Origin: Heptranchias perlo
Taxonomy: Eukaryota
Assembly: GCF_035084215.1 (NCBI RefSeq)
Contig: NC_090356.1
Span: 17,980,001 to 18,044,000, forward strand
Reading direction: 5' to 3'
Length of the DNA stretch: 64,000 nucleotides
Shown in pieces: positions 52,801-55,166 of this stretch (position 1 is its first letter; each line of letters starts with the position of its first letter). Made by a program: the position numbers and the translations under genes. Under the pieces are notes generated by a model. It searched no databases. It had not been told where the DNA came from and saw only the letters and a program-made list of their open reading frames with translations.

Positions 52801-53836
52801 TGTTAGTAACAGAATTGTGTAAATATAGATTTAATTGTGGTGTGAAGAAATTTAAAATTTGGTGCCCCTGTGTGGGCCGCACGATTACTTAAGGAAGGAT
52901 GTCCCCTGTCCCCACCACCCAAATTCGTGTGCCGTTAGTCTACAGTAAAGGTTGCACATGATGGACTGTGGGTGATGTTCTGGTCCCATGATCCCTCAGT
53001 ATCAGGAAGGTAGGTAGAAGCTTTTTCTTTTCTGTCTTTTGCACATCCTACACAAACTTTGTTTGTGCCAGTCTTGTTCCTTTGACTTTATGAAGGCTGT
53101 TGCTTGGGTCTAATCCCACGGGCTCTGGCAGCCTCCCGTATCTCTTAAAATAGGCTAATTTTTGTGTAAGCCTAGACAGTTTACATTGGCAAGCCCTTTG
53201 ACCACGGAGGGTATCAGAGCTGAGGCCAATCCTGCTCTCATCTACTGACTACACGCAGGAATTCCAGCTGGAGGTACTGGATAGTGATCCGGAACAGGAA
53301 CCCAGGCTGATTTCCCCATGGAGGCCAATTTAAGTGCCCCTATTACAGCCGCAAATGAGATCTGCTGAATCAGCACAAACTGGAGATTGGACTTAGCACT
53401 GAGCCACATAGACTAGAAGGTGCTATGTCAGGCAGAGCCTTTAGCCATCTATAGTTAGACTCACATGGATTCACACTATCTACTAGGGGAAGTGTGGACC
53501 TGTTCTCTTCCCCACTCCATTTTGATATGTCTCAGTGTGCCTGTAACATTGTGTGTGTATTTATAATTAACGAGACAGCAATATCTCCACTCCACTGCTT
53601 TTTTGTTTTGGTCAGTCCAACCACCATCTGGAAGCTGGGTGTGCTAACAGAATGAATACTCTCTAATATTATCGCTCATACTTACACTGAGAGTGTTTGT
53701 GTGGAATGTTAACCTGTTTGATATCCATGGTGATTTGTAATAGTATATGCATGCTGCATGCCTCATTTGGCTAATTGAGTTTGCTGTTGTGGTTTGTTTT
53801 GGTTTTTTTATCCTAACAGGACGCCAGCATCACTGA
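40674..53836 (+). CDS. DDI2: Protein DDI1 homolog 2 (UBL-HDD-retroviral-like aspartic protease-UIM), canonical short isoform, 9 coding exons, 408 aa (411 aa with the downstream exon-2 donor)
   Basis: Exons 40674-40811, 44157-44286/44295, 45894-46157, 48642-48768, 49821-49948, 50562-50690, 51354-51457, 52591-52780, 53820-53836; catalytic [24 protein letters not shown]-like [16 protein letters not shown]. Confidence 0.96.
40830..41650. repeat. Low-complexity (AT/AC)-rich region with poly-C tract at the start of DDI2 intron 1
   Basis: Recurrent atatacac/gatatatac motifs; C-run at ~41224-41238. Confidence 0.55.
44157..44295 (+). CDS. DDI2: DDI2 exon 2 ([30 protein letters not shown]...); two possible donors (44286 or 44295)
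   Basis: UBL C-terminal half; gttag|ATA; donors CAG|gtgtaa and CAG|gtgaga, both phase 1. Confidence 0.92.
44545..44875 (-). mobile_element. DeuSINE (SacSINE1-like), head-truncated
   Basis: Homologous to 22520-22950 (cccacaaacagcaatga; gcagcactccctcagtact). Confidence 0.72.
45085..45330 (+). mobile_element. Degraded SINE-like repeat (family B)
   Basis: cagaccagaaa…atccctggtct…ggattagggagg…gagtcaatgccttcaggagagg. Confidence 0.5.
45894..46157 (+). CDS. DDI2: DDI2 exon 3 ([13 protein letters not shown]...[38 protein letters not shown])
   Basis: HDD-domain motif; 264 nt, phase 1-1. Confidence 0.95.
46565..47487 (-). mobile_element. CR1-type LINE 3' part
   Basis: [12 protein letters not shown]…[21 protein letters not shown]…RTRGHNLKI. 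Confidence 0.9.
47843..48285 (+). mobile_element. tRNA-derived DeuSINE (SacSINE1-like), near full length
   Basis: A box gtggctcagtggtag, B box ggattcaagtcc; Deu-domain core ggacgtaaaagatcccatg…gaagaagag…gtcctggccaatatttatccctcaa; tail aaaggcgctttataaatgcaagt. Confidence 0.85.
48642..48768 (+). CDS. DDI2: DDI2 exon 4 ([43 protein letters not shown])
   Basis: 127 nt; [17 protein letters not shown] motif. Confidence 0.95.
48990..49235 (+). mobile_element. Degraded SINE-like repeat (family B)
   Basis: gggttcctgctcctgat…gtgaggacagaattaggctcagctgtgatg…gcaaggtaccagag. Confidence 0.6.
49821..49948 (+). CDS. DDI2: DDI2 exon 5 ([42 protein letters not shown])
   Basis: 128 nt; contains the catalytic Asp (DSG). 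Confidence 0.97.
50562..50690 (+). CDS. DDI2: DDI2 exon 6 ([43 protein letters not shown])
   Basis: 129 nt; RVP domain; TGG|gtgagt. Confidence 0.97.
51354..51457 (+). CDS. DDI2: DDI2 exon 7 ([35 protein letters not shown])
   Basis: 104 nt; ends in phase 0, CAG|gtaaga. Confidence 0.97.
51640..52226. mobile_element. Possible non-autonomous DNA element (MITE-like), GC-rich, with imperfect attttaac/gttaaaat inverted termini
   Basis: aattttaacc at ~51722 and ~51826 versus gttaaaat at ~51665, ~52127, ~52212. Confidence 0.35.
52591..52780 (+). CDS. DDI2: DDI2 exon 8 ([36 protein letters not shown]...[16 protein letters not shown]; end of RVP + UIM)
   Basis: 190 nt, phase 0-1; gcag|TGT, CTG|gtaatt. 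Confidence 0.96.
53100..53410 (-). mobile_element. Degraded SINE-like repeat (family B) in DDI2 intron 8
   Basis: agcctagacagt…gatccggaacaggaaccc…gagatctgctgaatcagcacaaac. Confidence 0.55.
53820..53836 (+). CDS. DDI2: DDI2 exon 9 coding part (GRQHH*); the exon continues as UTR to a donor at 53880
   Basis: Acceptor ttttttatcctaacag|GA; resembles the recalled human C-terminus ERQKP*; donor CAG|gtattt 44 nt after the stop. Confidence 0.85.
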
Positions 53837-55166
53837 TGCATGTTGCACTTGTGCCGCCCCTGAAGATGATCACAGTCCAGGTATTTAATGTTCTTTTGCT
53901 TTTAAATAACTTAGAGTGCGGCACAACAGCCAAACATTCATACAGGAGATATTTGCGTTGAATTATATGCCCTGTTCCAATAATGTAACTTCTCATTTTC
54001 CTCTTCATGTACTGAAGATGAATAATGCCTTTTGCACTGGGCAGTAGGAGAGTCACTTTGAGTTGCACTCCCATTACTTTCAGTGAAAAACAAAATACTG
54101 AGGTGAGCTGTTCCTGTATCTCAATCATCCAACAGATTAAAGTGTTCCCAGCCATCTCCACATCAATGTTGTGGGGTTTCATTATCCTGAGCAGAAGTGG
54201 GACATTCCTACCTGAAAAATCACTAACAATCTTATCCCCCAATTCCCATATCATGTCACGAGTAAGTTCACTGTATAATATCTAGATACTACTTCAATTC
54301 TTGTTACTATACAATGTTTCACTATAAAGTGTACTTATCAGGGCTGAAGTTGTGAGTTAAGTTCACAATGCAGAGCCTTGTTAGAGATTAGGTCATTGAT
54401 AGGGAAGTGACAACACGACAGGGCTATAACACCATAATAGGGATATGTAATACTGTAGCCCACTTCTCGGACCTGCGCTCACCACTAGAGGCACTTGGTG
54501 CCTGCAGCAGAGCCTTGCAACTTTGGCTCAATTGTTTCTTGCTCATTCGTTCATCCTGGACAAACCTTAGGATAGACCCTTGGCCACTCCAGTAGTTTTA
54601 TGCCCTCTAAAGTTGTGATTTTTCCCTCACTCTGATCCTTTGTAAAAACTCAGACCACAGAATAGTCCCGTTTGTTGTTTTTTTTCCCCTCAGCAGCCAG
54701 GCCTTGTTTTCACAGAAGGAAAAGTTCTCAATCATTTCTGCTTTAGAAATGGCTGCTCCCAACCTGTGAAAGTTCAGCATTACCACTGACGTTTAGTGAC
54801 TTTCAGTACATTTTACAAATTAGGGGACGGATGCATGTCAGAAGTGGATAATATATATCCAGCAGCAGGCAGCTCGGGTTCAACCTATCTCCAGGACAGC
54901 CCAAACTCTGGAGAAATACAATACATTTCACTGGAGGATAAACATTTTGTACGCTGCAACATACACCATTGATGCTCCTGAGGTAGAGCTGTGTTGTGCT
55001 GCCAAGGATATCCGGTTCCACGGGTGTGAGTTGGATCCATAGCTCAAACCTTCCTGAGGATTTTATGGCAAAGTGGCTGCTTGAGGAAGGAAAGCTCCTG
55101 TCTACGGAACAGATTGAAGGAATGCTGGAATGTCAACAAAACCTCCCGAGGGGGCGGGAGGTTGGA

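Follow-up and report, generated by a model that had tools for sequence, protein, structure and literature searches.

RBFOX consensus motifs and a candidate TDP-43 tract at a stop-codon cassette exon of DDI2 in the shark Heptranchias perlo

DDI2 is a protease that activates NFE2L1/NRF1. RBFOX proteins bound downstream of an exon usually activate its inclusion, while those bound upstream of the exon or within it repress it. Nonsense-mediated decay (NMD) as a rule requires a stop codon that precedes a later junction by more than 50-55 nt.

The DDI2/RSC1A1 locus is treated, among the open-access papers listed as naming both genes, only in Siva 2016 (PMC4962041). According to its discussion of the vertebrate proteins, vertebrate Ddi proteins have lost the UBA domain, which is now found in an inserted separate gene, RSC1A1. 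DDI2 is presented there as a proposed ubiquitin shuttle.

An exon of DDI2 has also been described in studies of TDP-43. In the results of Carmen-Orozco 2024 (PMC11163724), two exons respond to TDP-43 overexpression by skipping in mouse as well as in human, and that of DDI2 is one of them. All of these data come from overexpression and from mammals only: in mouse spinal cord the PSI was 100 and 96 in controls and 64, 42, 52 and 48 on TDP-43 overexpression, in human i3Neurons it was 86, 96 and 100 in controls and 29, 13 and 60 on overexpression (PMC11163724), and in mouse hypothalamus skipping rose from 2.5% (0-9%) in controls to 10.5% with TDP-43 (PMC12108026). The skipping is treated as aberrant in Carmen-Orozco 2024 (PMC11163724), where such exons are called constitutive. 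TDP-43 is the only factor for which we found experimental proof that it causes skipping of the DDI2 exon 9 orthologue.

The mouse exon has been scored for other splicing factors in Dataset S9 of Weyn-Vanhentenryck 2018 (PMC5989265), a table of 16,036 rows in which 732 Rbfox target exons are called at FDR<0.01. A 62-nt Ddi2 cassette exon is given there as -1 for Rbfox at FDR<=0.01 and as 0 for Mbnl, Nova and Ptbp, and it has no entry among the developmentally regulated cortex exons of that study. The value of -1 stands for repression, because Gabrg2 exon 9 (+1 for Rbfox, -1 for Ptbp) fixes the sign. According to the paper the inputs of the Rbfox model are CLIP data, motifs, evolutionary evidence and knock-downs in C2C12 and HeLa cells; the call is a model prediction, and part of its basis is motif evidence like that presented here. 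A search by gene name gave no Ddi2 row among the 2,935 splicing events listed for Rbfox1 or Rbfox2 single-knockout thymic epithelium (PMC8559713), and the table of QKI/RBFOX1 overlaps in PMC6103745, with 186 rows, does not contain DDI2. A comparison with the eCLIP peaks of PMC6103745 at the DDI2 coordinates, placed by an hg38-to-hg19 offset and made without a positive control, gave no peak and is uninformative. The mouse Rbfox call, the TDP-43 effect and the gene models are already on record; a regulated DDI2-RSC1A1-UBA fusion as the consequence was not found in the literature, and the open-access search returned no paper that links skipping of exon 9 to such a fusion.

We analysed a stretch of 64,000 nucleotides of Heptranchias perlo DNA (the window, in whose positions the coordinates below are given). 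The DDI2 gene in it is made up as follows.

40674-40811, 44157-44295, 45894-46157, 48642-48768, 49821-49948, 50562-50690 and 51354-51457 (span 40674..51457), + strand: DDI2 exons 1-7, encoding the UBL, HDD and retroviral-like protease
52591..52780, + strand: DDI2 exon 8, end of the protease domain and UIM, ending in phase 1
53820..53880, + strand: DDI2 exon 9, a 61-nt stop cassette with the last residues, TGA at 53834-53836 and 44 nt of 3' UTR; spliced joints in 8/8 runs
57107..59160, + strand: exon 10 ORF, an RSC1A1-like tail of low conservation (about 680 aa) with a UBA-like domain at its end
60018..60023, + strand: AATAAA poly(A) signal; RNA contigs end at 60037-60045

The ORF at 57055-59160 (701 aa) is a 100% match to P0001, DDI1 homolog 2 isoform X1 of Heptranchias perlo, and the 1090 aa of this protein are reproduced exactly by DDI2 exons 1-8 joined to exon 10 from 57107. 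Because exon 8 ends in phase 1, the reading frame continues into exon 10 when exon 9 is skipped; when exon 9 is added, the frame stops at 411 aa. On translation of the exon combinations, skipping gives the 1090-aa form and inclusion gives a 411-aa DDI2 that lacks the UBA, the exon 10 ORF being 3' UTR whenever exon 9 is included. An earlier note on this DNA had described a stop exon whose skipping joins a UBA-bearing exon to the rest of DDI2, and this anatomy is the one that reproduces P0001.

The borders of exon 9 are fixed by spliced contigs with GT..AG joints, and the 251 nt around it are single-copy in the genome. Exon 9 is not a poison exon, because its stop is only 44 nt from the last junction, less than the 50-55 nt of the NMD threshold. 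The supplement of PMC11163724 gives a length of about 62 nt for the mouse and human exon, which would be in keeping with the same stop-to-junction limit in mammals, and marks the skipped human DDI2 form as not NMD.

Elsewhere in the window, LINE-type reverse-transcriptase ORF fragments and repeats, assigned to a family by eye, are found at 7461-8219, 25074-26329, 34995-36889 and 62150-63700, and high-copy repeats are present in intron 9 at 55113-56617. An arginase-family gene is located on the + strand at G000:C35:17929828-17935251, about 45-50 kb before the window; we take it to be possibly AGMAT, a neighbour of human DDI2.

Splicing of exon 9 was examined in contigs with spliced joints from eight of the 16 listed shark-group runs (organisms A, B, C and D), none of them registered as RNA. 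All eight runs carry exon 9 joints, so inclusion of exon 9 is the assembled form. In organism A the 8-9 and 9-10 joints are both present in 4/4 runs, which come from one sample of one study, and in runs X1, X2 and X4 a single contig is continuous from exon 8 into exon 9; in organisms B, C and D the 8-9 joint is present in 4/4 runs. An 8-to-10 joint was not seen among the 15 matches listed for the organism A contigs, which lose rare forms and cannot show the absence or the level of skipping. Skipping is annotated in Heptranchias perlo itself, as isoform X1 (P0001). A C>T change at window position 58482 is carried by contigs of X1 and X3 and absent from X4, all from one sample, and is likely an allele.

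The acceptor AG of exon 9 is at 53818-53819, and the following elements surround it.

53748..53753, + strand: RBFOX consensus TGCATG no. 1, in intron 8, -72 to -67 from the exon 9 acceptor
53755..53760, + strand: RBFOX consensus TGCATG no. 2, in tandem with no. 1, -65 to -60 from the acceptor
53771..53775, + strand: branch-point candidate CTAAT, by consensus only, with its A at 53774, 46 nt before exon 9
53785..53809, + strand: 25-nt U/G-only tract that replaces a plain pyrimidine tract, a candidate TDP-43 site
53837..53842, + strand: RBFOX consensus TGCATG no. 3, non-coding, in exon 9, starting at the first base after the TGA

The three TGCATG copies lie on the sense strand exactly where the earlier note had put them, and the CTAAT that it had proposed near 53771 and the UG-rich tract before the acceptor are likewise present. 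The note saw this tract but overlooked TDP-43. The 25-nt T/G-only run is the longest among the nine acceptors of the gene, the other eight having runs of 6-15 nt, while the plain TG count of 7 is within the range of the other acceptors (4-8).

Among exons 2-9, exon 9 alone has TGCATG inside it or within 150 nt, with two copies upstream, one exonic and none in the 150 nt downstream. Over the whole window the hexamer is under-represented, with 34 copies seen and 51 expected. When the 21 + strand copies were placed over the 64 kb, three fell within 95 nt in 0.75% of placements (0.95% for either strand), and local dinucleotide shuffles gave such a cluster in 0.7-1.6%. The probability of the cluster by chance is about 1%, in agreement with the view of the earlier note that it is unlikely to be accidental; copies nos. 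1 and 2 are not independent, because a 7-nt tandem repeat could come from a single slippage. Further sense copies are found at 54832-54837, 950 nt into intron 9, and at 57322-57327 in the coding part of exon 10. Against a silencer role, the TGCATG motifs are paired in a fold of the RNA in isolation (a single fold, without a shuffle control). A link to MBNL was rejected, Mbnl being 0 for the mouse Ddi2 exon and the YGCY count being no higher than in other exons; apparent mentions of DDI2 in MBNL/RBFOX papers proved to be the DOI string 'ddi223'.

RBFOX-family genes are represented in this genome by four loci and one further exon match over the cut-off. The choice of RBFOX as factor and of repression as direction, which the earlier note made from the shark DNA, is matched by the model prediction for the mouse exon (Rbfox -1, FDR<=0.01). 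The note also had RBFOX switch on long DDI2 in brain, and this part was not supported. A tissue switch through RBFOX1/2/3, which would make the long UBA form the major isoform in brain, heart or muscle, is suggested by the upstream and exonic positions of the motifs, by a mouse call whose knock-down inputs include C2C12 muscle cells and by the wide annotation of the long form. However, the exon is included at 96-100% in mouse cord and at 86-100% in human i3Neurons, its skipping is 2.5% (0-9%) in hypothalamus, and it is not developmentally regulated in cortex, all of these values being from nervous tissue. We consider such a switch unlikely; the default in the mammalian CNS is near-full inclusion, and the motifs and tract are not a shown on-switch in brain.

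Exon 9 was compared in the contigs of the other shark-group organisms. Over 63 nt it has no differences in B, two in C and two in each of two runs of D, and exon 8 in the same contigs has 3, 9, 9 and 9 differences over 192 nt. By these counts exon 9, which is mostly UTR, is conserved in relatives to the same degree as coding exon 8. Organism B has an identical exon 9, TGCATG no. 3 included, and over 711 letters its intron 8 contig shows 41 differing letters and 24 gap letters. In C and D, one of the two exon 9 differences falls at 53851, which is not part of TGCATG no. 3, and the alignment of an organism D contig extends to 53753, the end of TGCATG no. 1.

In more distant species the motif was deduced from gene models in which exon 9 is translated in a different frame, so that the DNA is constrained, an approach that assumes frames in register and mixes species. 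Taken together with the normal frame, human P0227 allows only TGCAYG immediately after the stop, and the same holds for stingray P0008 with P0133; two-species composites, of human with marmot (P0219) and of stingray with catshark (P0004), force TGCATG. In a snake, read-through of exon 9 ends in Cys-Met. These multi-frame models suggest that the exonic TGCATG is conserved to mammals. For the intronic pair, where the comparison is limited to sharks and rays, stingray P0008 reads the end of intron 8 with 88% identity to the window translation, and its start Met is the ATG of TGCATG no. 2.

Other gene models differ in how they treat exon 9. The basking shark protein P0003 has as its start codon the ATG within the exonic motif (window 53840-53880) and continues in frame into exon 10, which implies an exon 9 one base shorter than that of Heptranchias, through either a real stop-restart or a homopolymer error. 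Stop-restart translation from the exon 9 ATGs was rejected for Heptranchias, where neither ATG is in frame with exon 10. Human P0227 has a shifted acceptor in exon 9, giving an alternative C-terminus after exon 8, and lineage-specific tails follow exon 8 in lepidosaurs (P0186, P0230, P0231, P0239) and birds (P0232, P0236). The bird tails resemble the translation of window 53742-53771; they are not placeable in the intron and were not counted as conservation. A metagenome scan for vertebrate exon 9 with its intron gave one match, which is GC-rich, lacks a splice context and is due to chance. When peptides translated from the intron end and exon 9 in alternative frames were used in a profile search, one repetitive protein came up, which was uninformative.

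The motif that is best conserved is the one retained in the mRNA, and this would be expected if TDP-43 alone governed skipping and the exonic TGCATG acted on the mature short mRNA, with cytoplasmic RBFOX on the 3' UTR affecting stability or translation. The intronic pair would then be a local duplication, in line with its 7-nt tandem arrangement. TDP-43 is the sole factor with experimental proof, and RBFOX1 sites are known in introns and 3' UTRs. It is splicing repression, however, that the mouse model scores, stingray retains both the ATG of motif no. 2 and the end of the intron, and terminating ribosomes would probably sweep a site 1 nt after the stop. This division of roles seems to us improbable.

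The long form has its UBL, HDD, retroviral-like protease and weak C-terminal UBA in one frame in P0001. The UBA scores E=0.0014 with Pfam PF00627, below the cut-off, and the C-terminus matches UBA structures of Ede1 (E=0.007) and yeast Ddi1 (2mr9, E=0.017). A search with P0001 residues 300-440 found 264 proteins of 599-1908 aa, of which 120 were listed; the listed long proteins come from chimaera, coelacanth, teleosts, amphibians, reptiles, birds, platypus, marsupials and placentals including macaque. The UIM is followed by at least 300 aa in 120/128 stored proteins (P0001-P0128), and 117/119 proteins with the exon 8 signature pass a simple pattern for a UBA end, the other two having similar ends. 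One fused sequence, P0124, comes from a Logan assembly alone. All 120 long proteins, which are mostly automated gene models found with a query whose inclusion of the exon 10 start favours such matches, have [TS]TS within 11 residues after the exon 8/10 junction, and only 60/120 have a Met at the mammalian RSC1A1 start, downstream of [TS]TS. In an alignment of 20 sequences the column identity is 0.63 over the first 18 exon 10 residues, 0.33 in the middle and 0.73 in the UBA. Such a pattern would be less expected of a separate gene than of a translated fusion.

At P0001 residues of about 810-824, encoded within window 57107-59160, there is an island, approximately SPVATLFELHRELF, with a column identity of 0.88 across 20 vertebrates, in a tail that is otherwise variable. 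It is likely a helical binding motif.

The inclusion of exon 9 in 8/8 runs, the description of RSC1A1 as an inserted separate gene in Siva 2016 (PMC4962041) and the classing of such exons as constitutive in Carmen-Orozco 2024 (PMC11163724) could all be accommodated if exon 9 were constitutive, its motifs incidental, the long form splicing noise in gene models and RSC1A1 a separate gene. Against this are the chance probability of about 1% for the cluster, the retention of the frame and of [TS]TS upstream of a Met that is missing in half the sequences, and the agreement in both factor and direction between the mouse prediction and a blind guess from shark DNA. We regard this explanation as very unlikely.

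We think it probable, if far from certain, that the TGCATG trio and the U/G tract form an old RBFOX-plus-TDP-43 silencer module that tunes a normally minor skipped isoform. Exon 9 would be a small stop-codon cassette that is included by default. RBFOX bound next to the branch point and within exon 9 may hinder recognition of the 3' splice site, and TDP-43 on the U/G tract may compete with U2AF2. At brain levels RBFOX alone would give only a few percent skipping, and the two factors would together weaken an acceptor that is otherwise used almost fully. The long protein, with UBL, HDD, protease, UIM, long tail and UBA, would be made and under selection.

A broader proposal, which we put forward tentatively, is that vertebrate DDI2 never lost its UBA. 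RSC1A1 would be a conditional last coding exon of DDI2, and a 61-62-nt stop exon that responds to the dose of RBFOX and TDP-43 would have controlled access to it from the earliest jawed vertebrates onwards. A modest excess of TDP-43 would then direct about 40-85% of neuronal DDI2 mRNA to a UBA-bearing protease of about 1000 aa, tying TDP-43 gain of function to DDI2-dependent proteostasis, through NFE2L1 processing. If exon 9 is a regulated gate, UBA-bearing DDI2 exists on demand, under two known splicing repressors, and TDP-43 overexpression models already produce it in quantity, unrecognised. If the UBA was never lost, the phenotypes of Rsc1a1 knockouts would need to be re-read.

Three known systems are close to this locus, and a fourth comparison is with the locus as previously described. 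With RBFOX-repressed cassette exons, DDI2 exon 9 shares exact hexamers upstream and in the exon and none downstream, and its mouse orthologue is in Dataset S9 of PMC5989265. It differs from them in being nearly fully included in the CNS and in holding the normal stop, so that skipping adds about 680 aa, where in those exons a segment is lost or decay follows. Poison exons of AS-NMD are also small, highly conserved, stop-bearing cassettes, but in DDI2 only 44 nt separate the stop and the last junction, and the productive major form is the one that includes the exon. DDI2 exon 9 of mouse and human is one of the TDP-43 'skiptic' exons (PMC11163724; PMC12108026), and the shark acceptor is likewise U/G-rich; the 'skiptic' papers, in their treatment of this exon, regard its skipping as an aberration and make no mention of RSC1A1, whereas here the in-frame fusion is conserved across jawed vertebrates. 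Finally, Siva 2016 (PMC4962041) deals with the same locus, with an RSC1A1 ORF that ends in a UBA and a short DDI2 that ends in the UIM. In that account of the locus the UBA is lost to a separate gene and splicing is not mentioned, whereas skipping of exon 9 re-joins the two.
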